Shown: positions 3,341-57,115 of the stretch, piece by piece | Numbering within the stretch: the first letter of the stretch is position 1 | How the letters are laid out: the number at the start of each line of letters is the position of its first letter | Origin: Candidatus Parcubacteria bacterium | GTDB lineage: Bacteria; Patescibacteriota; Patescibacteriia; Patescibacteriales; BM507 | Reading direction: 5' to 3' | Length of the DNA: 64,000 nucleotides | Assembly (NCBI GenBank): GCA_002869265.1 | Contig: PKTH01000003.1 | Location: 8,190-72,189 of the forward strand | Position numbers and translations under genes: made by a program | The notes under the pieces: model-generated | What the model saw: the letters and a program-made list of their open reading frames with translations, nothing else | Told to the model about the DNA's origin: nothing | The model's database searches: none

Positions 3341-4387
3341 TTATGATAATTCCATTCCGAGAGAATAGCCGTATCGAGCTAGCTCTAGTTTTACCTCATG
3401 CAAACAACTTTCTCCGAAATTTCGAATTCCGAACATCAATTCGGACTCTGTTTTTTTAACCAGATCTGCAACGGTGAGTATATTAGCTTTTCTTAGAGCA
3501 TTTTTTGCTCTCCTAGAGATAAGTATTCCTTCGACTTTCCATGAAAGAACATAGCAGCTTTCTTTTTTAAAATAATGATTTGCCCCTTGAAATTCATCCA
3601 CTTGCAGAATTGTCCAAAGATGTTTCAAGCTTTCTCTGGTAGAGTCAGTATTTATCTTTTCAATAATATCTTCATATTTCTGTTGAATAGCTTGGTAAGC
3701 AAGTTTTTTTATTCGAGCAATTTCTCTAAAAGACATGCTCTCTTGGTTTATCCCATGATACATTTCCAAGAGTTCGATTTCTTTGGAATTGAGAATAATA
3801 CTTAAGATTTCATCTATCTGTTCCGAAGCATTGCTGGGCCAAATTGGTGAAAGGATTTTTCTATTAGAACTGACTAAATACTTCGAAGAAGCATCCATGA
3901 ACTCATCGTGATTTCTAGGAATTGCTTGGGCTATATCGGTACGACATCTAAAAAATGACATCAGATACGCTTCAAAATCATTTTCTATTGATTTTTTAGG
4001 AAAAATTGCAGACAGTAGACCTAGGTAACCTTGGCTATTAGTACCAAAATCAGGTTCAATAAGATTTTTTAAAAGTTTGCTCTTTGACACAAAATCTTTT
4101 TCAATAATATCAAGTTCAAGCCATTTTTTCAGAGCTAAAACCTCTGGTTTGCTTAAATTATCCAGAAATAGATTCTTTATGTATTTGCGTAGAGCTAAAG
4201 GAAAAACATTCCTGGATAGCTTGCTTGGTTTTTCAGAATCAGCTAAGTTTAACCGAGAAACATATTTACTAACTGTTCGAACGTTTATTTTTAAATGCTT
4301 TGATATCCATGTGCCCTTTATCCCAAGAGTCGCTAAAAATTGAATCAATTTTATATTATTCTCTGAAAGATTTTGACCTTTTTTCAT
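3341..4387 (-). CDS. Putative transcription factor: N-terminal HTH, sigma-70 region-4-like HTH, C-terminal RNA polymerase alpha-CTD-like domain
   Basis: C-terminal 65 aa (ILISRRAKNALRKANILTVADLVKKTESELMFGIRNFGESCLHEVKLELARYGYSLGMELS) resemble the alphaCTD helix-hairpin-helix. IELLEMYHGINQESMSFREIARIKKLAYQAIQQKYEDII resembles sigma region 4. GGAGG sits 5 nt before the ATG at 4387; the longest ORF starts at 4399. Confidence 0.6.
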   Translation of the reverse strand: MKKGQNLSENNIKLIQFLATLGIKGTWISKHLKINVRTVSKYVSRLNLADSEKPSKLSRNVFPLALRKYIKNLFLDNLSKPEVLALKKWLELDIIEKDFVSKSKLLKNLIEPDFGTNSQGYLGLLSAIFPKKSIENDFEAYLMSFFRCRTDIAQAIPRNHDEFMDASSKYLVSSNRKILSPIWPSNASEQIDEILSIILNSKEIELLEMYHGINQESMSFREIARIKKLAYQAIQQKYEDIIEKINTDSTRESLKHLWTILQVDEFQGANHYFKKESCYVLSWKVEGILISRRAKNALRKANILTVADLVKKTESELMFGIRNFGESCLHEVKLELARYGYSLGMELS

Positions 4388-4497
4388 CATTGCCTCCATT
4401 TGGTGAATGTATTATTTTAATGTTCAAGAGACTAGATTATCAATAGCAATAAAGATTGTCAAATATATTCTGCACAAGAAAGACAACAGAATTTTAT

Positions 4498-9188: not shown

Positions 9189-9974
9189 ATGGGAAACTTG
9201 AATGACCAAAAAAATAAAAAAATTCCCTTAAAAGATTTTCAAGTTCTTTTAAAAGAAGCTTGGGATATTTATTATCCGAAATTTCTAAAGATTATCGGCT
9301 TGCAACTCTTACCATTGATTCCTTTAGCCCTATTTTCTAGTCTAGTTCTTTTCCTGGGAATTAGTATGTTTTCTAATCTTTTTTCTAAGAGTGACTTTGC
9401 TCAAGACTTAATTTATTTTGGCTTATTAGTTTTTATTTTGTTTTTAGTTCTTATTTATTTTATGTCTGTTTTTATAACCGCAATATATATAATACTTCAA
9501 GATAGTGAAGGGAAAGTTACTTTAAGCCAGGCAATAAGAAAATCTTTTAAACACGCCCTGCCTTTTTTCTGGGTATATTTCCTTTCAGGTCTTGCTATGT
9601 TTTTTGGTTTAATCCTTTTTATAATCCCAGGAATTTTGATTGCCGTCCTTTTTTCTTTTTCAAAATGGGCTTACGTGCTTGAGGGTTTTCGAGGGACAAA
9701 AGCCTTAAAAAGAAGCAAGGAGCTCATTGATGGTTATTTTGGAGATGTTTTAGGTCGGTACTTAGTTATTGCTATTCCATATGTTCTTTTCCCTTCCATG
9801 GTCGGAATACTTACCAGTAATTCATCTTCTATTAATAGTTTATTTTTCGCTGGCCCCTTAATTCTAGTTTTCCAGATATTCAATTTTCTATTACCGCCAT
9901 TCATTTTTACATATATCCTAGTTATATATAGAGACCTCTATCGAATAAAAGGTCAATCTACTATCCAAAAATAA
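9189..9974 (+). CDS. Multi-pass membrane protein of unknown function (DUF975/GPDPase-membrane-domain-like)
   Basis: Start set at MGNLND, 1 nt after the nuoF-like stop. About 6 hydrophobic helices. Embedded in the hydrogenase operon. Confidence 0.5.
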   Translation: MGNLNDQKNKKIPLKDFQVLLKEAWDIYYPKFLKIIGLQLLPLIPLALFSSLVLFLGISMFSNLFSKSDFAQDLIYFGLLVFILFLVLIYFMSVFITAIYIILQDSEGKVTLSQAIRKSFKHALPFFWVYFLSGLAMFFGLILFIIPGILIAVLFSFSKWAYVLEGFRGTKALKRSKELIDGYFGDVLGRYLVIAIPYVLFPSMVGILTSNSSSINSLFFAGPLILVFQIFNFLLPPFIFTYILVIYRDLYRIKGQSTIQK

Positions 9975-11678
9975 ATGCCAAAAAACACTATAAAAATAAA
10001 CAAAAAAGATTATAAGTTTGAAAAAGACGAAACTATTTTAAATGTTGCCAGACGCAACAATATTTCCATCCCTTCTCTTTGTGATCACGCTGATTTCTGT
10101 GCGAAAGAGAATTGCAGAGTTTGTGTAGTAGAAATAAAGGGGGAGCATGGTCTCTCAACTTCTTGCGGAACAAAAGCCAAAAGTGGAATGGAGGTTTTTA
10201 CGGACACTGATAGAGTTGAAAAATCAAGAGGCCTAAATCTAGAAATGATTTTTGCTGAGCATATTGAAAAATGCGCTACCTGTATCTGGAGATTTGAATG
10301 TAAACTTTTAAAATATGCCCGTGAATACAACTTACTTATAAACACATTCCCAGACAGAAAAGGTAAAAGACCTGTATACAAGTTTAAAAACGCTGTTGAG
10401 CTTGATTCTAGTCAGTGTATTGATTGTCGTAACTGTATAGATGCTTGCTCTATCCTGCAAGGAATCGATTATCTTGAGATAAAAGGAAAAGGGCACAATC
10501 AAGAAGTTGCTCCTACTTCCGATAGACGAAAACACTGTATTCTTTGTGGGCAATGTGCCCTACATTGCCCAGTCTCAGCTGCTCAGGAACAAGCTAATTG
10601 GCAAGATGTGGAAAAAGAGATCTTAAATGACAAAAAAACTGTTGTTGTCCAGTTTGCGCCTTCTATCAGGGTAAGTATTGGAGAGGATTTCGGTATGGAT
10701 TACGGAGAAATAGTTACTGAGAAATTAGTTTCTAGCTTACGGGCACTTGGATTTGATTTTGTTTTTGATGTTTCGTATTTTGCGGACATAACTACAATAG
10801 TTGAAGCTGAAGAGCTTCTCGAACGCATAACTAAAAAAGGGACCCTCCCTATGATGACTTCCTGTTGTCCAGGGTGGGTTAACTACGTTGAACACTACAA
10901 CCCGGAACTAATTCCAAATTTAACAACTGCCAGATCCCCACAAATTCATGGTGGAGGAGTAATAAAAACATACTGGGCAAATAAGATGGGAATCGACCCA
11001 AAAGACATCGTAGTAGTTTCAATAATGCCCTGTACAGCAAAAAAATACGAAGCCTCTCGTGAGGAGATGACTATTAACAATCAATTGCCGGTTGATTATG
11101 TTTTGACAACAAGAGAGCTCTCCTTTATGATTAAGAAAAGCAAAATAGACTTTGTTAATATTAAAGAAACTAAAGCAGATAATCCACTTGGGGAATATAC
11201 TGGGGCTGGAGTTATTTTTGGAGGTTCTGGCGGAGTAATGGAGTCTGCTCTTAGAACAGCTCAGTACATATTAGAAGGCGATAATGCTAAACTTAGTAAA
11301 AAAAGAATTGATTTTCACGATGTTAGAGGTCTAGAGGATATAAAAGAAGCAGAAATTGATATAGCCGGTAATAAAGTAAGGGTAGGAATTGTTAACGGAA
11401 TAAAGCACATCAAAGAGATTATCCCGAGATTGAAAGACTTTGATTATATAGAAATAATGACATGCCCTGGAGGTTGCATTGGTGGCGGAGGTCAACCTAT
11501 CCCAACAAGCAGAGCAATTGTTAAAGAGAGAATAGCTGCCTTATATAGAGATGACAAAAACAAAAAAGTCAGAGTTTCTGCTGAGAATGAAAGTGCTAAA
11601 GAAATTCTAGACTGGCTAAAAGAAAACAACCTAGAACATAAAACATTACATACTAGGTATTTTAAAAATTTAGACTAA
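9975..11678 (+). CDS. hydA: [FeFe]-hydrogenase catalytic subunit (CpI-like domain layout)
   Basis: H-cluster motifs TSCCPGW, MPCTAKKYE and EIMTCPGGCIGGGGQP. N-terminal 2Fe-2S region plus two CxxCxxCxxxCP ferredoxin motifs. Confidence 0.9.
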   Translation: MPKNTIKINKKDYKFEKDETILNVARRNNISIPSLCDHADFCAKENCRVCVVEIKGEHGLSTSCGTKAKSGMEVFTDTDRVEKSRGLNLEMIFAEHIEKCATCIWRFECKLLKYAREYNLLINTFPDRKGKRPVYKFKNAVELDSSQCIDCRNCIDACSILQGIDYLEIKGKGHNQEVAPTSDRRKHCILCGQCALHCPVSAAQEQANWQDVEKEILNDKKTVVVQFAPSIRVSIGEDFGMDYGEIVTEKLVSSLRALGFDFVFDVSYFADITTIVEAEELLERITKKGTLPMMTSCCPGWVNYVEHYNPELIPNLTTARSPQIHGGGVIKTYWANKMGIDPKDIVVVSIMPCTAKKYEASREEMTINNQLPVDYVLTTRELSFMIKKSKIDFVNIKETKADNPLGEYTGAGVIFGGSGGVMESALRTAQYILEGDNAKLSKKRIDFHDVRGLEDIKEAEIDIAGNKVRVGIVNGIKHIKEIIPRLKDFDYIEIMTCPGGCIGGGGQPIPTSRAIVKERIAALYRDDKNKKVRVSAENESAKEILDWLKENNLEHKTLHTRYFKNLD

Positions 11679-29513: not shown

Positions 29514-29606
29514 TCTTTATTTACAAAATAGATGAGCTATGTTAACTTTCTATATTATTGATCATTTATAAACGGCACTTTTAAAAACAATAAATAGGAG
29601 ATTGTA

Positions 29607-29750
29607 GTGTTTAAAGATATCCATCCAAGCTATTTAGCAATTGCGTTGGTCCTTGTTCTTATACTTTTTCATGATTTTGTGATTCCTTTTGCAAAATATC
29701 TGATTGAGCTGAGAAGGTCAATTTTAAAAAAAGAAAACAACAAAAACTAA
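29607..29750 (+). CDS. Candidate 47-aa single-TM peptide (not in the ORF track)
   Basis: GTG start 6 nt after TAGGAG. Translation VFKDIHPSYLAIALVLVLILFHDFVIPFAKYLIELRRSILKKENNKN, translated by hand. Confidence 0.35.
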   Translation: MFKDIHPSYLAIALVLVLILFHDFVIPFAKYLIELRRSILKKENNKN

Positions 29751-29905
29751 TCTCAAAACATGGAGGAATCAATGAATATTACCAACAATGCCTCATTTCC
29801 AATCCAATAATCGCTTTTTGTAGTTCTTCCGATGTCGGGCATGGTGATGATCACAGAATCGAACCTGGTTAGACAGAAAATGTCATTGGTCCATATATTG
29901 GAGAA

Positions 29906-30115
29906 ATGGATGGCGGATCATGCTACATCGTAGTAGAGGGAGAAATAACTTGTCACGAATCAGATGATGATGATTACGCATTTCAGGTGCTGAAAAGCAG
30001 ATCCCTTTCTCTCGGATGCAATGGCCCCAAGAGCATCTCAGTTCGTCATTTCGAAGATGATGCAGAAGAGCATGTTCTCGAATGGAGACGGAGAACAAAA
30101 ACAACCCAACACTAA
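29906..30115 (+). CDS. Hypothetical acidic 69-aa protein
   Basis: GGAGA SD; strong terminator starts 12 nt after the stop. An antisense ORF (29883..30125) competes with it. Confidence 0.35.
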   Translation: MDGGSCYIVVEGEITCHESDDDDYAFQVLKSRSLSLGCNGPKSISVRHFEDDAEEHVLEWRRRTKTTQH

Positions 30116-30126
30116 AAAACACCATA

Positions 30127-30152
30127 ACCGCAAGTTAACTTGCGGTTTTTTT
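30127..30152 (+). terminator. Rho-independent terminator
   Basis: CCGCAAG-TTAA-CTTGCGG followed by T7. Confidence 0.85.
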
Positions 30153-30153
30153 A

Positions 30154-30183
30154 TAAAAAAATCCCTAGAGCTTTACTCTAGGG
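30154..30183 (-). terminator. Rho-independent terminator for the minus-strand coiled-coil gene
   Basis: CCCTAGAG-CTTTA-CTCTAGGG with an A7 run on the plus strand (T7 on minus). Confidence 0.85.
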
Positions 30184-30207
30184 AGTGGGCCGGAATGAAT
30201 TCATTCC

Positions 30208-39348: not shown

Positions 39349-40596
39349 ATGAAAAAGATTTTATTTCTACTTGCAATAATTATTGTTAGTGGTGCTATTA
39401 TTAGGACCTCAGATTTTGCATACCTTGCTGAAGAGGAGAGCTACTCAACACCAGAATCAGCTAAGATAAACAATGAAATAAAAACAATCAATGAAGAAAT
39501 AGAAGATAGAAAGAATCGGATGCAAAAGATACAAGACAAACAAAAAAGCTACACTCAAGCTATTGCCCAAAAACAGAAAGACAAATCCACTCTTAATAGC
39601 CAGCTAGCTATACTTGATAATAGACTTGCCAAGGCTGAACTTGATATAGAATCAGTTGAAATTGATATTGAAAAAGTCTCTCTGGAGATTTCAAAAACAA
39701 ATCTTTCCATTCTGGATAAAGAAGCTGAGATAGAAGTAGAAAAAAGTAAAATTGAAAAAGTTATCCAGCTGCTTTATAAAGAGGGGAATATAGACACACT
39801 CCAAATATTACTTTTGAACAACTCCTTATCAGATTTTTTAACCCAAGTTAAATACCTTGAGAATGTTAACCAAGCAGTTAAAGAAAGTCTCGACAATTTA
39901 GTTTCCTTGAAAGAAAATTTAGAAGAAGAGAAGATCCAACTGGGAAAAAAGAATGACAATCTTGAATTACTTAAGAGTGACCTTATAGATAAAAAAGAGC
40001 TACTCAAAGCTGAACTTGAATCCAAAGAAACCCTACTAACTCAAGTAAATTCATCTGAAGCTGAATATCAAAAATTACTTGCTCAATCCAAAGAAGAACA
40101 ACAAGACGCTGCAGCAGAGATTGCCAGTATGGAAAAGCTTATCAGGGCTAAATTAGCAGCTCTTCAAGGGAAAAAACTAGAGTTCAACGAAAATGGTTTT
40201 GTTTGGCCGGTCAAAAAAAATGTCATAACTGCTTATTTTCATGATCCAGACTACCCATATAAAAATATTTTTGAACATCCCGCTATTGATATTCGGGCAG
40301 GGCAGGGGAGTACTCTAAAAGCAGCCGCTTCTGGCTATGTGGCCAGAGCAAAAGACGCTGGAATGGGATACAGTTATATCATGATAATACACGGAGATGG
40401 GCTCTCTACGGTATATGGACACGTTTCCAAGCTTTATGTCCAAGATGACGAATACGTCGTTCAGGGGCAAACTATAGGCCTCTCAGGAGGTATGCCTGGA
40501 ACACCAGGAGCTGGTAGACTGACAACTGGACCTCATCTTCATTTTGAGGTTAGAAAAGACGGAATCCCTGTAAACCCCCTAAACTATTTACAATAA
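39349..40596 (+). CDS. M23 family metallopeptidase with a long N-terminal coiled coil (EnvC-like)
   Basis: HPAIDI, HGDGLSTVYGH, GPHLHFEV. About 250 aa of coiled coil. Confidence 0.85.
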   Translation: MKKILFLLAIIIVSGAIIRTSDFAYLAEEESYSTPESAKINNEIKTINEEIEDRKNRMQKIQDKQKSYTQAIAQKQKDKSTLNSQLAILDNRLAKAELDIESVEIDIEKVSLEISKTNLSILDKEAEIEVEKSKIEKVIQLLYKEGNIDTLQILLLNNSLSDFLTQVKYLENVNQAVKESLDNLVSLKENLEEEKIQLGKKNDNLELLKSDLIDKKELLKAELESKETLLTQVNSSEAEYQKLLAQSKEEQQDAAAEIASMEKLIRAKLAALQGKKLEFNENGFVWPVKKNVITAYFHDPDYPYKNIFEHPAIDIRAGQGSTLKAAASGYVARAKDAGMGYSYIMIIHGDGLSTVYGHVSKLYVQDDEYVVQGQTIGLSGGMPGTPGAGRLTTGPHLHFEVRKDGIPVNPLNYLQ

Positions 40597-40660
40597 TATT
40601 TTTTTTAGTTATACTTTTTTTACTATTTTGCTCTTTAACCCAATATAAAAGGGGACTCTT

Positions 40661-40843
40661 ATGCGTTCACTAATGGACCAAGTTCTTTCGCTTAAAACAG
40701 TCAAAGGAAAAACTATCCCTTCACCAACAAAACCCGGATATGAAAAGCTTGCCAGAGAAGCAGACGAAAGAATTGACAACATTATTTCAAGTCGACTTAG
40801 AGGATTAGCAAAAGCAGCTACCGTAATGGTAAGAGGAGTGTGA
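40661..40843 (+). CDS. Hypothetical small protein
   Basis: AAAGGGG SD-like sequence; 1-nt gap to the next ORF. Confidence 0.35.
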   Translation: MRSLMDQVLSLKTVKGKTIPSPTKPGYEKLAREADERIDNIISSRLRGLAKAATVMVRGV

Positions 40844-40844
40844 C

Positions 40845-41042
40845 ATGATCTTAAATTTTGTTATGAATAACAACTTGTTCAGCATTATTTATCTTTTACT
40901 GTCTTTCGTCGCCCTTTCACTTGGAGCTATAATAACAATCCTTACTTCAACTCTCTTTTTCTCTATAAATGTAATTGCCCTTTTGTTTGCTGGAGTCTCA
41001 AATTTTCTCTACCAGGTTACCACTCATCCGGAACTAGAATAA
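40845..41042 (+). CDS. Hypothetical small membrane protein (2 TM helices)
   Basis: Hydrophobic 65 aa; coupled to the previous ORF. Confidence 0.4.
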   Translation: MILNFVMNNNLFSIIYLLLSFVALSLGAIITILTSTLFFSINVIALLFAGVSNFLYQVTTHPELE

Positions 41043-41077
41043 GTATTAGAACTCAAAGCAAGAAAAATTTTGCAATT

Positions 41078-41111
41078 AAAAAAGCACTGAAAATATTCAG
41101 TGCTTTGTTTT
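41078..41111. terminator. Bidirectional terminator
   Basis: AGCACTGAA-AATA-TTCAGTGCT with flanking A and T runs. Confidence 0.8.
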
Positions 41112-41487
41112 AGCTTAAAAACAATTTTTCTCCAATCGTGTAAGTTTTATCTTGAGAATTATCGAAATGAAGAAATGGGACAAACAAAAGAGAAAAGAAC
41201 GAAATAGAAATCCATAAGAAAAGAACAGGTAAACAATTTCTACTTTTATCAAAAAAATAATAAAATAATAACCTAATAAATGCATACAAGGCTACTAAAT
41301 ACAAAAGTATTAATACTACTTGAAGAACCATGGATAGCTCAGAAACATGATACAGCATACCAGTTACCCTTGTTTCGAATTTACTTGCCGGGTGAATATA
41401 CAAGGAGGCATTTATCAAGACGAGATAGATAGCAACAGTAAAAATTATAGCGACTAACAAACTTACAGAATGATATTTCTTACTCAT
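41110..41487 (-). CDS. Hypothetical membrane protein (about 4 TM helices)
   Basis: AGGAGGAA SD upstream; hydrophobic profile. Confidence 0.45.
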   Translation of the reverse strand: MSKKYHSVSLLVAIIFTVAIYLVLINASLYIHPASKFETRVTGMLYHVSELSMVLQVVLILLYLVALYAFIRLLFYYFFDKSRNCLPVLFLWISISFFSLLFVPFLHFDNSQDKTYTIGEKLFLS

Positions 41488-41574: not shown

Positions 41575-42531
41575 CTAATTTTTTAAGTTTTTCCCACTGT
41601 GAAATTTTTTATGGACATCTCTTAGCTGCTTATTAGTAACGTGCGTATAGATCTGTGTTGTAGCTATATTTTGATGTCCTAAGAATTCTTGTACTAAACG
41701 TAGGTCTACTCCTTGAGCAAGCAAATCAGTAGCGTAAGAGTGTCTAAGGGTGTGGGGGGTTGTCACTATGGGGAGGCCAGCTATTTTAACATATTTTTTG
41801 ACTATTTCTTCAACACTTTTAGTGGTAAGTCTACGTGGATTTGAGGTTTTTTCAATACCTGGTTTGTAATTTATAAAAAGTGCTGGATCCATATCTTGTC
41901 TTTTATTTATATATGCCCGCAACCACATAGTGGCTCTTTCTGAAAAATAAATAGCTCGAACTTTTGATCCTTTTCCGATGACAGAAACCTCCATGTCTTT
42001 AGTTTTTTCTGTTATTCTAAACTGCTCAGAGTCAAGTGCAACTAACTCTGCCACACGTAACCCAGTAGAAAATAATACCTCTAAAATCACTCTATCCCGC
42101 AGTCCAATTCTTGTTTCTATATTAGGCGCCAATAATAATTTTTCAACCTGATCCAAACTCAAAAATTTTATTTCTTTATCTGCTTTATCTTTAGCAAGTT
42201 TTATTTTGTCTGGGGGGAGAGAGGGGATATCTCTTTCAATGAAATACTCTAAAAAACTCCTCAGGGCTATAAGGTAATAATTTTGAGTAGATTTTTTTAA
42301 GGTTTTTTTTGTCCTGGGGTCAGTATGTCTTGAGAGGAAAACTCTGTATTTCAACACATGCTTATCAGTTAATTTTTCCGGTGATAATTTATCTAATCCT
42401 GAATCCTTTAACCATAAAAAAAATTTATTTAAAAATCGGGAATAATTTTCTTGCGTTTTAGAAGAAAGTCCTCTTTCAATTTCTAAAAAATCAAGATAGT
42501 CTGTAAGATGTTTTGATATTGCTTTTGCCAT
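41575..42531 (-). CDS. Tyrosine recombinase, XerC/XerD family
   Basis: Catalytic region HTLRHSYATDLLAQG..LGHQNIATTQIYTHV. N-terminal SAM-like domain FLEIERGLSSKTQENY. Confidence 0.88.
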   Translation of the reverse strand: MAKAISKHLTDYLDFLEIERGLSSKTQENYSRFLNKFFLWLKDSGLDKLSPEKLTDKHVLKYRVFLSRHTDPRTKKTLKKSTQNYYLIALRSFLEYFIERDIPSLPPDKIKLAKDKADKEIKFLSLDQVEKLLLAPNIETRIGLRDRVILEVLFSTGLRVAELVALDSEQFRITEKTKDMEVSVIGKGSKVRAIYFSERATMWLRAYINKRQDMDPALFINYKPGIEKTSNPRRLTTKSVEEIVKKYVKIAGLPIVTTPHTLRHSYATDLLAQGVDLRLVQEFLGHQNIATTQIYTHVTNKQLRDVHKKFHSGKNLKN

Positions 42532-42569
42532 ACAAACATTATAGCACTTATATTATGCGAAGTATATTG

Positions 42570-42598
42570 TTGACATAAAGTTCTATATAGAATATATT
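42570..42598 (+). promoter_or_regulatory. Candidate promoter
   Basis: TTGACA, 17-nt spacer, TATATT, upstream of 42654..42908. Confidence 0.4.
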
Positions 42599-42653
42599 TA
42601 TAACTGTTGCTCATTTTACAAATCCCAAAATACTCATACGGAGAAAAAGAAAA

Positions 42654-42908
42654 ATGAAAATGTTTATTATCCTAATAGTAATATTTTCTATTACAAACAT
42701 CTGTTATGCAGAAGAACAAGATAATGATTATATCTTAATCGATCATAACAGCGCTCAAGCAAAAAAAGAAAATAAAGAACTATTTAGTCTCAAAGTCAAA
42801 GAAACAGAAAACATCACTTATTCTCTTTTTGTTGGTTGTAATGACAATCAGGAATTTGATCTATTTAAATGGGAAAAAATTGGCGCTAAAATGATTATTA
42901 GATTCTAA
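42654..42908 (+). CDS. Hypothetical small secreted protein
   Basis: GGAGAAAAAG SD; signal peptide MKMFIILIVIFSITNICYA. Confidence 0.4.
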   Translation: MKMFIILIVIFSITNICYAEEQDNDYILIDHNSAQAKKENKELFSLKVKETENITYSLFVGCNDNQEFDLFKWEKIGAKMIIRF

Positions 42909-43314
42909 AATGCGCAAAAATACACGAGAGGACTAAAAACCCTCTTTTTTTTCTTAAAAATGCCATTTATTGACTAATATTAGCTATTTAGCTCAAAATG
43001 GCTTTCTAAGAGATTTTTCTGTCTTTTTGGTATAAATACACATAACTTTAAGCATGCTTTTATAGAAAGTACCTAGAAAGCGCGAGATAGAGCCTAGATT
43101 TAAAAGAAATATATCTATTTATTTCAATTAAATTTTTAAGTCTAAAAAAACCTTAACGAATTATGAAATAATATGGAGACACTTAAGAAGTAGGGGTTAA
43201 TGAATAAATGTATAAACCGACTTTAATAACTACTTAGATTTATGAGTTTTTATATAAAAAGGAGGGTAGAGTATTTGATTGACGGGAAGGCACCTTATTT
43301 ATAGTATTGATAGT

Positions 43315-43342
43315 ACTTCGCATAATGTAGATTAATCAACGT
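43315..43342. other. Candidate dif (Xer recombination) site ACTTCGCATAA-TGTAGA-TTAATCAACGT
   Basis: Arms are 7/11 self-complementary. 18/28 identity to each of the E. coli and B. subtilis dif sequences as I recall them. Lies in the convergent gap ~0.8 kb from xer. Confidence 0.4.
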
Positions 43343-43602
43343 ACTATATGTATTTAAAAGGCTTTTTAAGGCCTTTATAATACTTTCTAAAAATATTAAT
43401 ATTATGCGTCTGTTATTAACATCCCAAATATATTTATATCTGGATTGAACATCAACAGGAACTTTAAAAACAAAAGAAAGAATCCAATAACGACTAAGCA
43501 AAAAACAATAATGGCTAATACGAATAAAGTTTTAAATAACCCCTCCATAGTTTTGGCTAATATTAGCAAATAATGCTATAATTTACCTAATATTAGATTA
43601 AT

Positions 43603-44484
43603 TTATCTATAGTATATCATGTCTCCGAAACGAAGATCTATATACGTTTTTGAAAATAACTCATCTCTTAATTTCTCATTTCTCAAGAGAATAAGTTTCT
43701 GAATTTGTTGATCAATACCCTCCTCGACATTAAAGTATACATCAGGACCATCCATTATTTTCATAGTTAAGGTGTTGTCATTCTCATTTCCTACTGTAAA
43801 CTTTTCTACATTAAAAATATTTGTATCTCTTAACTCTTGATAAAGTTTAATAGCATATTCAAAATGCTTTTCTTTACCCGCGACCCTTTGATCAAGAATT
43901 AATAATCTGCCCTTGTTTTCAATAAGTGGAAAAATCTGTTTAAGCTCTTCGGGTAAGACTTCTATTATAATCTCTCCATTTGTTGTTATGTAATAATATC
44001 TTGAATCTTCAAACCAGACCAAGGCATAAGAAACTTCTTTCAAGTCTAGCTCCAGTTTATTGGGGAATTTTTTATTAACGACAATTGACTCAAAGGCTAA
44101 ATCTTCTTTTAGTTTATCATAAAGAGCATTTTCTTTAAACAAAAAGAAGTTATTACCGGGGAAAAATACATACTTTGACCGTAATTGCTCACGGGCAATC
44201 CTTTCTATCTGTTCCTCCCCTATTCCTCCTATATCATTTACACGGTCAAAGTTAATGCTTATGTCATATATTAAAAAATACTTTGAATAAATAAAAAACC
44301 AAAATAACAATGCAAATAAAGCAAAAAAGAACAAAACACTAAACTTGGTTTTCCATGAAAAATGGCTAAGAAGAGGTTTAGAACTTTTTTTATTAGCTTC
44401 ATTAAAATAGGGGTTGGTATATGATTTATGACTTACATATTGCCTACGACTATTTGTTCTCAGTTTTTTTTTATTTTTAAACAT
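43603..44484 (-). CDS. ftsQ: Cell division protein FtsQ/DivIB-like (TM helix plus POTRA)
   Basis: Single TM helix, POTRA-like I.I.F....I, downstream of ddl. Confidence 0.65.
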   Translation of the reverse strand: MFKNKKKLRTNSRRQYVSHKSYTNPYFNEANKKSSKPLLSHFSWKTKFSVLFFFALFALLFWFFIYSKYFLIYDISINFDRVNDIGGIGEEQIERIAREQLRSKYVFFPGNNFFLFKENALYDKLKEDLAFESIVVNKKFPNKLELDLKEVSYALVWFEDSRYYYITTNGEIIIEVLPEELKQIFPLIENKGRLLILDQRVAGKEKHFEYAIKLYQELRDTNIFNVEKFTVGNENDNTLTMKIMDGPDVYFNVEEGIDQQIQKLILLRNEKLRDELFSKTYIDLRFGDMIYYR

Positions 44485-44508: not shown

Positions 44509-45459
44509 TTATTTTTCACTTCTATTTTTAATGGCCTCTGTAATTATCCTTTCTAAAAGTTCAGAAAATGGGATCCCAGATTCTTTGGCTGCTTTAGGTA
44601 AAAGACTATTCTTTGTCATTCCAGGAATAGTATTCATTTCAATAAAGTGTATTAGGTTTGTAGTAGAATCAACTATGAAGTCAGCTCTCGCCAAGTCTCG
44701 ACAGTCTAAGATTTTAAAAATATCTACAGCCGCTTGTTGAAGAGAGTTTTTTAAGTCATCAGGAACAACTGCTGGGCATATTTCATCTGCGCCTCCATCT
44801 TCATACTTAGCTTTGTAATCAAACCAAGAAGAAACCTTCGGAATTATTTCGATCACTGGAAGAGCTTCTGGCATTTTATTGCCCATAACTGCAACTGTAA
44901 ATTCTCTACCCTTAATATATGACTCAAGTAGAGCGCTAAGACTATGGTCGTGCGCATTCTTTATAGCATCTTCCAACTCTTCTTTTGTATGAACAATTGA
45001 AACACCGATCGAAGATCCTTGTTCCATGGGCTTTACCACCAATGGTAAACCAAGGGTTGATATAATCTTTTTCACGTCAACACTCTCCCCTCTTTTTAGA
45101 ACCATGTCTTTAGCGACCGAGATGCCAAGGGTCTTAACAATCATCTTAGTACTATATTTATTCATAGCTATAGCACTAGTTAGGAGACCAGAAAAAAGAT
45201 AAGGAACTTTCAATAAATCCAACATCCCCTGCAAGCTGCCGTCTTCACCAGCAGTCCCGTATAGGGCGGGAAAAACAATATCAAATTTACCAGTACTCGC
45301 ATCAATAAAGAACTTCATTAAATCTTCTTTCGGATCATACCGAAAAACCTCATATTTTTCTTTATCCAGAGCATTAAAAATAACATCTCCTGCCCTTTGT
45401 GACACTTCTCTTTCTTGTGAACTACCTCCCGAGAGTAGGGCTAATTTAATTTTTTCCAT
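44509..45459 (-). CDS. ddl: D-alanine--D-alanine ligase
   Basis: GGSSQEREVS, YGTAGEDGSLQGMLDLLKVPY, EMNTIPGMT. Confidence 0.93.
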   Translation of the reverse strand: MEKIKLALLSGGSSQEREVSQRAGDVIFNALDKEKYEVFRYDPKEDLMKFFIDASTGKFDIVFPALYGTAGEDGSLQGMLDLLKVPYLFSGLLTSAIAMNKYSTKMIVKTLGISVAKDMVLKRGESVDVKKIISTLGLPLVVKPMEQGSSIGVSIVHTKEELEDAIKNAHDHSLSALLESYIKGREFTVAVMGNKMPEALPVIEIIPKVSSWFDYKAKYEDGGADEICPAVVPDDLKNSLQQAAVDIFKILDCRDLARADFIVDSTTNLIHFIEMNTIPGMTKNSLLPKAAKESGIPFSELLERIITEAIKNRSEK

Positions 45460-46877: not shown

Positions 46878-48986
46878 CTATAAGTTTAGTTTATCTGAAA
46901 TATTTTGTAAGGATTTTAAGCTAATTTCAAAAAATTCATCCAATGACAAACCTGTCTCTTCTATTTCTTTTATCAGTTCCCTATCGCAATTTGCGGCAAA
47001 GGATTTTGTTTTAAATTTCTTTTTCAGTGAGCTCAGTTTAACGCTAGCTAGCTTTTTATCTGGTTGCATTTTTGCTGAAGCAACGATTAGCCCAGTCAAA
47101 GTCTCAGCGGCAACCAATGCGTATTGAATTTTTGTTTCTCTTTTTCTATTAGGATTTTCTCCGCATTCTTTATTACCAAAAGTATGTGATTGAATCGTTT
47201 CAATTAAATAATCTGAGGCTCCTTCTCCTTTTAAAATTTCAGCTGCTCGTACGGTATGGTCTATAACCTTATTGCTTGTCTCATCCCAATCAATATCATG
47301 CAAGAGACCGACTATCCCCCACTGTTCTTCATCTTCCCCAAAATACTTTGCCAAATCGCGCATAATAGACTCTGTCTCAATGGAATGCAATTTTGTATTA
47401 TCGTCTTTTACATATTTTTCAAAAATAGCTTTTGCTTTTTTATAATCAATACCTAATTCCTGCCCCTCGCTTTCATTCATACCCCTTGGTGCAGAAACAG
47501 TCTGTAATCTTTTCATAGTTGGGAACATAACCATATCTCTAATGTTTTCTTCACCTTCCAGTAAGGCAAAAAATCTATCGAGGCCCATCCCCCAACCTGC
47601 CATAGGTGGCATACCGTATTCCATAGATTCAACAAAATCATGGTCGAAAGGCATAGCTTCTTCGTCCCCCTCTATCACAAGCCTCTCCTGAGCCTCAAAA
47701 CGCTCTCTTTGGTCGATTGGATCATTTAACTCGTTATATGCCTTAATCATTTCCCAAGTGTTTATTACAAGTTGAAAAGTGGCAACTTTTTCCGGCTCTT
47801 CTTCTTTGGTTTTGGCTAAAGCCATTAATTCCTTGGGGTAATCTGTAACAAATACTGGATTAATCAGTTTATTTCTTACAGTTTTCTTGTATAATTCATC
47901 AATCTTTGCAGGCCAGCCAATCTTATCTTTTACATTTACCTTATTCTCCAAGGATTTTTCCATAACAAATTTTTCTACTTTTTCTTCTGTGTCCAAGTCC
48001 TTAACTCCTACACCTAAATTTTCCTTAAGAAGCTCATCAAAAGTTTTTCTTGGGAAAGGTGGCTGAAAATTTATTTCATTATCACCATATTTAACAACAA
48101 AATTTTTATATACTTTTTCTACTACTTCTTTGATTAAGTTTTCAGTAAAATCCATTAAAAAATTATAATCAACATAAGGCCAATAGAATTCAAACATGGT
48201 AAACTCCTGCAAATGAGCAGGACCCATCCCTTCATTTCTAAAACATTTACCTATCTCAAATATTCTTTCAAAGCCACCAGCAACTGTTCTTTTCAAAAAC
48301 ATCTCTGGAGCGATTCTTAAATAAAAATCCTGATCAAGACCATGGTAATAAGTCGTGAATGGTTTGGCATAGGTCCCCCCGTAGACATTTTGCAAGATAG
48401 GTGTTTCAACTTCTACAAACTTGTTAGCCCACATATATTCTCTGATAGCACGAGTAGCTTCAAACCTCTTTTTGAATCTTTCATAAGCCCTACGGTCAGA
48501 AATCATTTCTAATTCCCTAAATCTTTGTTTCTTATCATCGTCTTGAAGTCCGTGCCATTTTTCCGGAAGTGGTCTAATTGCTTTACTTAGAACCCTCCAC
48601 TCACTAACCATGATAGATTTTTCATTTTTATGTGTTAAGAAACAAGAACCCCCTACTTCAACAAAGTCGCCCATGTCAATTAACTTAACAAAGTCTTTAT
48701 AAGAGTCGTCCCCTATTTCCTTTTTTGAAAAAGCTATTTGAATACTTGCACTTGAATCCTCAAGGTTGGCAAATGTTAAATTTCCATGAGTTCTCTTACT
48801 CTTAAGCCTCCCCGACAAGACAAAGGTTATAGATTTCACGAGGTTTTCGTCAAAATCATCTAAAACTTCACTAATATGGTTAGTTCTGTTGTTTTTAGAA
48901 GTATATGGATTTATCCCTTTTTCACGTATTGTATTTAATTTAATCTTCCGTTCTTCAAATTCACTAATTTTTTCATTTTGGCTCAT
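46878..48986 (-). CDS. lysS: Lysyl-tRNA synthetase (class II) fused to a C-terminal HD hydrolase domain
   Basis: Class II core (FRNEG, GGxGxGxDR-like GWGMGLDRF) in residues 1 to ~500. C-terminal ~200 aa with WGIVGLLHDIDWD resemble the stand-alone COG2316-type HD hydrolase (from memory). Confidence 0.9.
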   Translation of the reverse strand: MSQNEKISEFEERKIKLNTIREKGINPYTSKNNRTNHISEVLDDFDENLVKSITFVLSGRLKSKRTHGNLTFANLEDSSASIQIAFSKKEIGDDSYKDFVKLIDMGDFVEVGGSCFLTHKNEKSIMVSEWRVLSKAIRPLPEKWHGLQDDDKKQRFRELEMISDRRAYERFKKRFEATRAIREYMWANKFVEVETPILQNVYGGTYAKPFTTYYHGLDQDFYLRIAPEMFLKRTVAGGFERIFEIGKCFRNEGMGPAHLQEFTMFEFYWPYVDYNFLMDFTENLIKEVVEKVYKNFVVKYGDNEINFQPPFPRKTFDELLKENLGVGVKDLDTEEKVEKFVMEKSLENKVNVKDKIGWPAKIDELYKKTVRNKLINPVFVTDYPKELMALAKTKEEEPEKVATFQLVINTWEMIKAYNELNDPIDQRERFEAQERLVIEGDEEAMPFDHDFVESMEYGMPPMAGWGMGLDRFFALLEGEENIRDMVMFPTMKRLQTVSAPRGMNESEGQELGIDYKKAKAIFEKYVKDDNTKLHSIETESIMRDLAKYFGEDEEQWGIVGLLHDIDWDETSNKVIDHTVRAAEILKGEGASDYLIETIQSHTFGNKECGENPNRKRETKIQYALVAAETLTGLIVASAKMQPDKKLASVKLSSLKKKFKTKSFAANCDRELIKEIEETGLSLDEFFEISLKSLQNISDKLNL

Positions 48987-56281: not shown

Positions 56282-57115
56282 TTATTCAGATTTTTTTGGT
56301 CTGCCTCTCTTCTTTGTAGTTTTTTCCTCTTCCTCCTCTTCCTTCTTCTCTACTTCTTCCTCCTCTTCCTTCTTCTCTACTTCTTCCTCCTCTTCCTTCT
56401 CTTCTGCTTCTTCCTTCTTTTCATCTTTTTTTTCTTCAGAAAGGGCTGAAAATTGATCAATCAATATTTGGTTTGCTTTCTTAAAAGCATCAGCAGGACT
56501 AATAGTGCAGTCCGTTTCAATATTTAAAACTAATTTATCCCAGTTAGTCATTTTACCAACACGAACGTTTTCAATATCATATCCGATATTCAAAACAGGA
56601 GAATAGATTGAATCAATTTCCAGGTAACCAAGTTCGTTTGTTTTTCCTTCTCTTGCTTCAATAGTTTCATAACCAATACCCTTTTTAACAAAAATCTCCA
56701 TGTTTAAGTTTCCTGACATATCTGTCAGATTTGCAATTACCAAATCTTTATTTACAATTTCAACGCTTGAATCATTTTTAATATCAGAAGCTTTTACTGC
56801 TTTCTTGCCAACAGCTTTCAACTCTAATTTAACTACTTCGTCAGTGTGAACTTTAATTCTTAAAAGTTTTAAGTTCATTAAGATTTCCAGAATATCTTCC
56901 TTAACATGTGACAATGACATAAACTCATGGTCAACACCTTCAATCTTAACACCAACAACAGCTGCACCCTCTAGTGAAGATAAAAGAACTCTTCTAAGAG
57001 AATTACCAATTGTAGCACCATAGCCAGGAAAACAAGGCTCAATAATAACCTGTCCAACGTTTTCTTTATCGCCATCTTTAAATGTGATTTTATTTGGTAG
57101 GGCAATGTTTTGCAT
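56282..57115 (-). CDS. rpoA: RNA polymerase alpha subunit: NTD only, with an acidic repeat tail and terminal AT-hook; no alphaCTD
   Basis: GNSLRRVLLSS, alpha-NTD insert domain. After about residue 228 only EEEEEVEKK repeats and KKRGRPKKSE. rplQ starts 21 nt downstream. Confidence 0.9.
   Translation of the reverse strand: MQNIALPNKITFKDGDKENVGQVIIEPCFPGYGATIGNSLRRVLLSSLEGAAVVGVKIEGVDHEFMSLSHVKEDILEILMNLKLLRIKVHTDEVVKLELKAVGKKAVKASDIKNDSSVEIVNKDLVIANLTDMSGNLNMEIFVKKGIGYETIEAREGKTNELGYLEIDSIYSPVLNIGYDIENVRVGKMTNWDKLVLNIETDCTISPADAFKKANQILIDQFSALSEEKKDEKKEEAEEKEEEEEVEKKEEEEEVEKKEEEEEEKTTKKRGRPKKSE
56327..56407. repeat. 3 x 27-bp tandem repeat inside the rpoA 3' end
   Basis: Units at 56327-53, 56354-80 and 56381-407. 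Units 1 and 2 are 26/27 identical; unit 3 shares its first 20 nt. Encodes EEEEEVEKK. Confidence 0.85.

Follow-up and report, generated by a model that had tools for sequence, protein, structure and literature searches.

The 64,000-nucleotide stretch of Candidatus Parcubacteria DNA analysed here (contig PKTH01000003.1 of assembly GCA_002869265.1; hereafter the window) carries a 28-bp dif site linked to a gene for an XerD-like tyrosine recombinase (xer). The site is unique in the window, is conserved together with xer in related genomes, and coincides with the point at which the predominant orientation of the genes switches from one strand to the other. Based on these observations we propose that the locus is, with high probability, the chromosome-dimer-resolution module of the Parcubacteria chromosome, situated where its two replichores converge. 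No circular bacterial chromosome can do without a terminus and a means of dimer resolution, and the feature itself is ordinary, expected housekeeping; what is new, as far as we could find, is a chromosomal dif/Xer site in Parcubacteria, and we found no indexed paper linking Xer/dif with Patescibacteria or the candidate phyla radiation (CPR). An earlier reading made from the sequence alone (the sequence-only reading) had interpreted the convergence of two gene blocks beside an Xer recombinase as a probable replication terminus. That interpretation is supported by the analysis below, and the observations on which it was built are confirmed in part.

The first clue to the dif site was a 16-nt inverted repeat pointing at the sequence ACTTCGCATAAT, which is similar to the XerC arm and spacer of proteobacterial dif sites. 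The full site, ACTTCGCATAA-TGTAGA-TTAATCAACGT, is flanked by palindromic bases that widen it to positions 43313-43344 (all other coordinates of the locus are given in Table 1). It has the format of a dif site throughout, namely a 28-bp imperfect palindrome with ~11-bp arms, a spacer within the 6-8-bp range and the (C)ATAA/TTA(T) core, and its arms are symmetric at 7/11 positions, as against 6/11 in the dif sites of both E. coli and B. subtilis. A position weight matrix built from the sites of relatives and run over both strands of the 64 kb recovered this site at 47.4 bits, with all other matches scoring below 8 bits. The prediction of the sequence-only reading that a dif should lie beside xer at the point of convergence is therefore borne out by a single 11-6-11 site. 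In the window it stands 785 bp upstream of xer, because a cargo gene intervenes.

The site is conserved along with the recombinase. Our comparison covered 80 metagenomic loci, in which Xer is 65-87% identical to that of the window, at least 80 genome loci, mostly from distant relatives, and 4 loci of the closest relatives. Among the loci listed, 69 contain the 28-bp site ACTTCGCATAA-TGTA(G/T)A-TTAA-N7 upstream of xer, in the form of 28 distinct 28-mers; the median distance between dif and the xer start codon is 97 bp, and in 47 of the 69 it is 150 bp or less. There is hardly any variation in the left arm or in the spacer TGTA(G/T)A, including at the positions left free in the search pattern, and the right-arm positions A29, T32 and A33, likewise free in that pattern, are also conserved. 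The symmetry between the arms ranges from 4 to 10 of 11 positions across relatives. Each locus has one full dif, over a total of ~890 kb of related loci; those that gave no match mostly have short upstream sequence, and two others contain diverged variants. Related sites were also recovered directly upstream of xer in a CPR metagenome-assembled genome (MAG; L005), in a complete Nealsonbacteria chromosome (L007) and in a Magasanikiibacteriota MAG (L008), and a probable dif variant precedes xer in a Kuenenbacteria locus (L006). In the Microgenomates and Saccharibacteria loci, whose Xer proteins are at most 49% identical, a generic palindrome search detected no xer-adjacent site. The orientation of dif relative to xer is not constant: the two are on opposite strands in the close clade (L085-L164) and on the same strand in L005 (~9957-9984), L007 (~9909-9936) and L008 (~9940-9967), and the flanking genes converge alike in both groups despite this flip.

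This conservation bears on the most sceptical explanation of the locus, in which operons happen to converge beside an unrelated integrase and the motif is fortuitous. AT-rich intergenic DNA is indeed rich in short repeats, with 94 inverted pairs in 3.5 kb here, but such a background does not account for a 28-mer that recurs in so many loci and stands alone in the window, nor for an enzyme that scores as Xer and not as a phage integrase. We regard this explanation as scarcely credible and effectively refuted. A dif consensus, ATACTTCGCATAA-TGTA(G/T)A-TTAA..., is now defined for a large uncultivated group of small-genome CPR bacteria, and within the clade the motif provides a one-line test for locating the terminus, orienting the replichores and checking the assembly of MAGs.

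The recombinase gene is the sole tyrosine recombinase gene of the window, as the sequence-only reading had stated, and profile scores confirm its product as Xer-like. NCBIfam models give 230.8 bits for XerD and 224.5 bits for XerC, both under the respective equivalog cut-offs, followed by 197 bits for XerA (equivalog cut-off 220) and 115 bits for XerS (cut-off 267). The closest solved structures are those of E. coli XerD (1a0p, E=3.4e-38) and XerA (4a8e, 8e-31), with XerH at 8e-13. The protein has the R-K-H-R-H-Y catalytic set of Xer-type recombinases: R159, H260, R263, H286 and Y295 are invariant in 19 orthologs, and K187/K190 lie in a GKGxK motif. Proximity of dif to the gene of its recombinase is regarded as a hallmark of single-recombinase modules (PMC5357621), and in most loci of the clade the site adjoins xer. 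The adjacency of xer, the equal similarity of its product to XerC and XerD and the near-perfect palindromes (10/11) of some relatives together suggest that a single recombinase may act at dif. Against this, arm symmetry is only 4-5/11 in other relatives, and one invariant and one variable arm would also be expected of a two-enzyme system.

In its mode of action the locus appears to resemble XerCD/dif, and its layout is like that of the XerS/difSL and XerH/difH modules. With E. coli XerC/XerD-dif and B. subtilis CodV/RipX-dif it shares the 28-bp 11-6-11 site (18/28 positions identical to each), an enzyme closest to XerD and a position at a convergence of gene orientation; its left arm and spacer, TTCGCATAA-TGTA[G/T]A, nearly match the proteobacterial XerC arm and central region. 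Unlike in these systems, the site adjoins the recombinase gene and the protein falls short of both the XerC and the XerD equivalog. Moreover, the invariant arm here is the one on the XerC side and the other is variable, which is the reverse of the cross-phylum pattern (PMC3025954). As in XerS/difSL of streptococci and lactococci and XerH/difH of Helicobacter and Campylobacter, the recombination site and the gene of its enzyme make up a single genetic module at the terminus (PMC5357621, PMC1914069). However, the protein belongs to neither family and the spacer is not of an atypical kind: the enzyme is not an XerS (115 bits, cut-off 267) and has 318 aa versus ~355 aa, and its site has a 6-bp spacer versus the 11 bp of difSL, while to XerH it is only distantly related (E=8e-13 vs 3e-38 for XerD). 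The archaeal XerA/dif system is similar in combining an ordinary-sized XerC/D-like enzyme with a 28-bp dif, and XerA is the second-closest family, but the organism studied here is bacterial and its protein scores below the XerA cut-off.

We examined the genomic setting of the module in an 82-kb assembly, which extends the window by two pieces of the same contig that overlap with it (ENA ERZ794998 NODE_97, 125,582 bp; the window corresponds approximately to the reverse complement of ~29,002-93,001 on NODE_97). The window has a GC content of ~34% and the gene content of an ordinary chromosome, including gltX, ddl, ftsQ, aminoacyl-tRNA synthetases, ribosomal proteins, dnaB, recR and lexA. Bacterial genes are preferentially co-oriented with replication, and a convergence of gene orientation marks the terminus. 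In the curated gene list of the window, the 44 genes left of 43.3 kb divide into 36 on the plus and 8 on the minus strand, and right of that point there are 26 genes on the minus strand and 0 on the plus strand, so that the predominant orientations converge at 43.3 kb. The pattern holds over the 82 kb, with the orientation bias reaching at least 52 kb to the left and at least 30 kb to the right. The strand switch described by the sequence-only reading thus stands in its plus-rich left flank and all-minus right flank, although the minus-strand genes on the right, given as more than 30, come to ~26. Less survives of its account of the gap at 42909-43602, which it had called gene-free and by far the longest non-coding stretch of the window. 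A 48-aa open reading frame (ORF) lies inside the gap, and the 493 bp that remain non-coding are exceeded by 29514-30207 (694 bp) and 40597-41109 (513 bp). The recombinase gene does lie ~0.4 kb from the edge of this gap, as claimed, but with an 84-aa gene in between.

An origin of replication close by would contradict a terminus, as the sequence-only reading had pointed out. The window contains no dnaA gene, and a scan of it for DnaA boxes gave 22 matches versus 18.8 expected, with no cluster and none between 39.7 and 45.3 kb; the locus is therefore not an origin. A chimeric join of contigs is likewise ruled out, since the same synteny recurs in independent assemblies. No RNA family was detected between 40.5 and 44.6 kb (Rfam, E-value mode), and the 82 kb covered here contain no recognised ftsK gene. 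Gene order around the site is preserved in relatives: the order ftsQ-micropeptide-dif-xer is shared by 58 loci, with ftsQ to the left of dif. For 24 close relatives the available flanks measure 5 kb or more to either side; in these, 98% of the ftsQ-side genes are directed toward dif, and on the xer side 33% of the coding sequence is on that strand, xer included. In 23 of these 24 loci the left side has the higher GC skew, and in 15 the sign changes. The same convergence is equally clean in three distant loci (for example, skew goes from +0.217 to -0.147 in the Nealsonbacteria genome), and it is kept in L005 and L007 despite different flanking genes. We thus place the terminus here because of gene orientation together with the dif/Xer module. 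In a survey of 16 phyla, none of them CPR, dif positions were found to correlate strongly with the point at which the skew shifts (PMC3025954).

The GC skew of the locus itself proved to be a poorer witness. Over the 82 kb the raw skew drops from +0.057 on the left of the site to -0.205 on its right, and cumulative G-C reaches its maximum at window position 40,562, with a plateau up to 43.3 kb. In the cumulative-skew check that had been suggested for the terminus, the raw maximum lies at 40.6-43.3 kb, but the skews at third codon positions and at four-fold degenerate sites show no clean flip. The third-position skew of the plus strand stays below zero from one side of dif (-0.12) to the other (-0.20), the raw skew turns negative at 23-31 kb, where the genes are on the minus strand, and the coding strand has an excess of C at four-fold degenerate sites whatever the gene class, in the window as well as in 26 pooled relatives. 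The flip in skew is mainly a coding-strand purine bias that tracks gene orientation, and is therefore not independent evidence for a terminus. As raw GC skew in this clade is mostly an effect of gene orientation, skew-based checks of CPR assemblies call for caution.

Several points weigh against placing the terminus at this site, and they are best considered together with a rival explanation that accepts the dif/Xer module as real and lets replication end elsewhere, the convergence being a conserved boundary between co-directional blocks (the end of the dcw cluster versus the xer side). Four-fold degenerate sites give no clear signal of fork direction. In the pooled relatives the skew at these sites is -0.128 and -0.174 for the co-oriented gene classes and -0.204 for counter-oriented genes, which leaves a replication component of ~0.015-0.04, and on the contig itself co-oriented genes have a coding-strand skew at these sites of -0.249 on the left and +0.034 on the right, an unexplained difference of 0.28. 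Since there is no clean flip at these sites, the direction of the forks is read from gene orientation alone, and it is on this reading that they would meet at the orientation switch. The 24+3 loci described above share an inherited synteny and hence are not independent observations of the convergence. In CP179888.1, the only complete genome, ~30 kb separate the site from the beginning of the record, which is uninformative unless the record starts at oriC, in which case it would conflict with a terminus. Finally, Kono et al. note that termination need not fall strictly at dif (PMC3025954). Yet all systems studied so far have dif at the junction of the replichores, the one place where it is functional (PMC3025954), the orientation bias reaches at least 52 kb leftward and 30 kb rightward, and the convergence persists in lineages in which the flanking genes are different. 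We therefore consider it unlikely that replication terminates elsewhere, and retain the proposal that the module sits at the junction of the replichores.

On this basis we propose that the 28-bp dif would serve as the substrate of the XerD-like recombinase, which would bind both arms and exchange strands across the 6-bp spacer, converting a chromosome dimer into two monomers at division. Transcription would stop just short of dif from either side, that of the ftsQ-micropeptide unit coming from the right and that of the divergently promoted cargo gene from the left. In the subclade to which the window belongs, Xer bound to an extra arm over the xer promoter would probably also regulate its own synthesis.

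The right-hand unit ends in a previously unannotated gene for a micropeptide. An ORF of 46-50 aa is present at this place in 49 loci, as 43 distinct sequences, and its entropy at the three codon positions (1.02/0.43/1.47) is typical of coding sequence under purifying selection. Its stop codon lies a median of 54 nt from dif. Matches by tblastn extend to 62 loci at 54-71% identity, versus 30-36% for the neighbouring FtsQ in most relatives. No Pfam family covers the micropeptide, a homology search returned self-matches only, protein databases have almost no entry for it, and the metagenome gene caller missed it; a conserved gene beside ftsQ thus escapes gene callers. The hairpin that follows is also conserved, with its stem changed on both sides in the alignment of L097 (GGAC/GTCC), and is probably the terminator of the ftsQ-micropeptide transcript.

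The left-hand interval, between dif and xer, has a more variable character. A putative extended -10 element of xer, present as TGnTATAAT at the same place before xer in relatives, is only ~6 nt from the start codon, which suggests that the xer mRNA is probably leaderless. Over the same putative promoter lies an orphan Xer half-site, which emerged from an inverted-repeat scan as one member of a 16-nt, 94% pair (42549-42564 / 43314-43329). An identical half-site occurs ~30 nt before the xer ATG in L085, L165, L166, L167 and L168, whose Xer proteins are 87-91% identical, and one is found 36-67 nt before it in the more distant L086, L092, L097, L134 and L138; no conserved second arm accompanies it in related loci. 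The half-site may be an operator through which Xer autoregulates its own promoter. The block 42538-42606 is 80% identical to L085, and the region ~42607-43294 has no blastn match in 160 loci. Within the latter, the 84-aa cargo protein belongs to no Pfam or NCBIfam family, and its sole match in 5.8 billion proteins is itself. The gene is followed by 407 bp of non-coding DNA, in which a weak hairpin with a T-run is likely to be its terminator. Across relatives the two arms are anything from 24 bp to 1.4 kb apart. In the closest relatives the slot holds signal-peptide proteins of 161-169 aa (L165 8634-9853, L167 1439-1948, L085 ~1000-2000) that are 34-36% identical to one another, versus 87-91% for Xer; that of L165 also holds a gene for a 147-aa lipoprotein. 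Judged by these identities, the secreted proteins of the dif-xer slot appear to evolve very fast. Other subclades have unrelated small genes in the same slot, without a half-site. On the other side of xer, just downstream, 41110-41487 (minus strand) encodes a 125-aa multi-pass membrane ORFan with no homolog in ~160 related loci, and at this place the closest relatives have either no gene or a different one, of 131 aa and on the opposite strand; variability thus extends to both flanks of xer.

Inverted 16-nt repeats next to a recombinase raise the possibility of an invertible, phase-variable segment, or of a cassette mobilised by Xer such as a dif module or an integrative mobile element that exploits Xer (IMEX), instead of or besides dimer resolution. 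The repeat brackets ~750 bp that include a promoter and a small secreted-protein gene, homology among relatives breaks exactly at both arms, immediately outside the half-site and outside the left arm of dif, and the gene content between them varies even among close relatives. The dif modules of Acinetobacter have inverted pdif sites at their borders (PMC12907356, PMC11705084), and our locus resembles these and IMEX in having variable genes beside dif and a second, inverted Xer-binding sequence. However, such elements call for two complete sites with matching spacers. In this locus the second site consists of one arm only, placed on the xer promoter and without a conserved partner, and the 6 bp beside the two arms differ (TGTAGA vs TATAAG), so that strand exchange between them is unlikely. 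The orientation of the cargo is constant in 10/11 loci and hence there is no sign of flipping; together these features led us to reject an inverton. Half-site and cargo are also found apart: the former occurs without cargo in L134, where the arms are 24 bp apart, and other subclades have cargo without it. After integration of an IMEX the repeats would be direct and the good chromosomal arm would be the one beside xer, but the repeats are inverted with the good arm distal to xer, and a simple IMEX integration was rejected on this ground. Unlike the Acinetobacter elements, the locus shows no evidence of mobility, and the cargo of the closest relatives looks vertically inherited and fast-diverging, consisting of diverged homologs and not of swapped cassettes, by which the case for cassette swapping is weakened. 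An invertible or mobile segment is thus a highly improbable account of the locus, and dimer resolution at dif remains our preferred reading.

A broader suggestion, which we offer tentatively and as rather less probable than not, is that a third type of self-contained Xer module may be at work in Parcubacteria/ABY1-type CPR. It would comprise a single XerD-like enzyme beside a dif of canonical format with one invariant and one free-running arm, autoregulation of a leaderless gene through the half-site, and a dif-xer slot for the fast gain, loss and divergence of small secreted or surface genes, possibly aided by Xer at the extra arm. A slot for fast-evolving secreted proteins beside dif may bear on the interaction between episymbiont and host.

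Table 1. Features of the dif-xer locus and its right-hand neighbours (window coordinates)
Feature	Position	Strand	Remarks
xer	41575-42531	-	318-aa XerD-like tyrosine recombinase; SAM-like N-terminal and catalytic domains; Pfam PF00589 (1.1e-37), PF02899
Putative extended -10 element of xer, TGCTATAAT	42538-42546	-	6 nt before ATG; read from the sequence
Orphan Xer half-site, ATACTTCGCATAATAT	42550-42565	-	Copy of dif's invariant arm in the opposite orientation to dif; over spacer/-35 of the xer promoter
Predicted divergent sigma-70-like promoter of the cargo gene, TTGACA-17-TATATT	42570-42598	+	11/12 consensus matches; best of the region
Cargo gene, 84-aa ORFan	42654-42908	+	Signal-peptide-like N-terminus; in the slot between dif and xer
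Hairpin with T-run	42927-42952	+	Terminator scan; fold energy -6.4 kcal/mol, z-score -1.2 (weak)
dif	43315-43342	+	28 bp, 11-6-11; matrix from relatives
Hairpin AAGGCC-loop-GGCCTT	43358-43376	-	Just before dif; fold energy -10.6 kcal/mol, z-score -2.5
Micropeptide gene, MEGLFKTLFVLAIIVFCLVVIGFFLLFLKFLLMFNPDINIFGMLITDA	43402-43548	-	48-aa hydrophobic membrane micropeptide; directly downstream of ftsQ; in-frame tblastx conservation
ftsQ	43603-44484	-	POTRA and FtsQ/DivIB C-terminal domains (Pfam); last large gene of the right-hand replichore
ddl	44509-45459		Next after ftsQ

Three further observations concern genes away from the dif-xer locus. RNA polymerase alpha looks split: a 277-aa gene product in the ribosomal cluster (56282-57115, minus strand) has the N-terminal and dimerisation domains only, and the alpha C-terminal domain (PF03118) is found on a separate 352-aa protein (3341-4399, minus strand), 52 kb away. 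A 702-aa class II aminoacyl-tRNA synthetase (46878-48986, minus strand; OB fold and tRNA-synt_2 domains) is fused at its C-terminus to an HD phosphohydrolase domain. Past the right end of the window (~64.5-70.7 kb; L003 2506-8708), a gene encodes a repeat-rich surface protein of 1850 aa with LTD, CLIPPER and SdrD_B domains, which together with the sortase gene that follows it is likely to constitute a cell-surface adhesin system.

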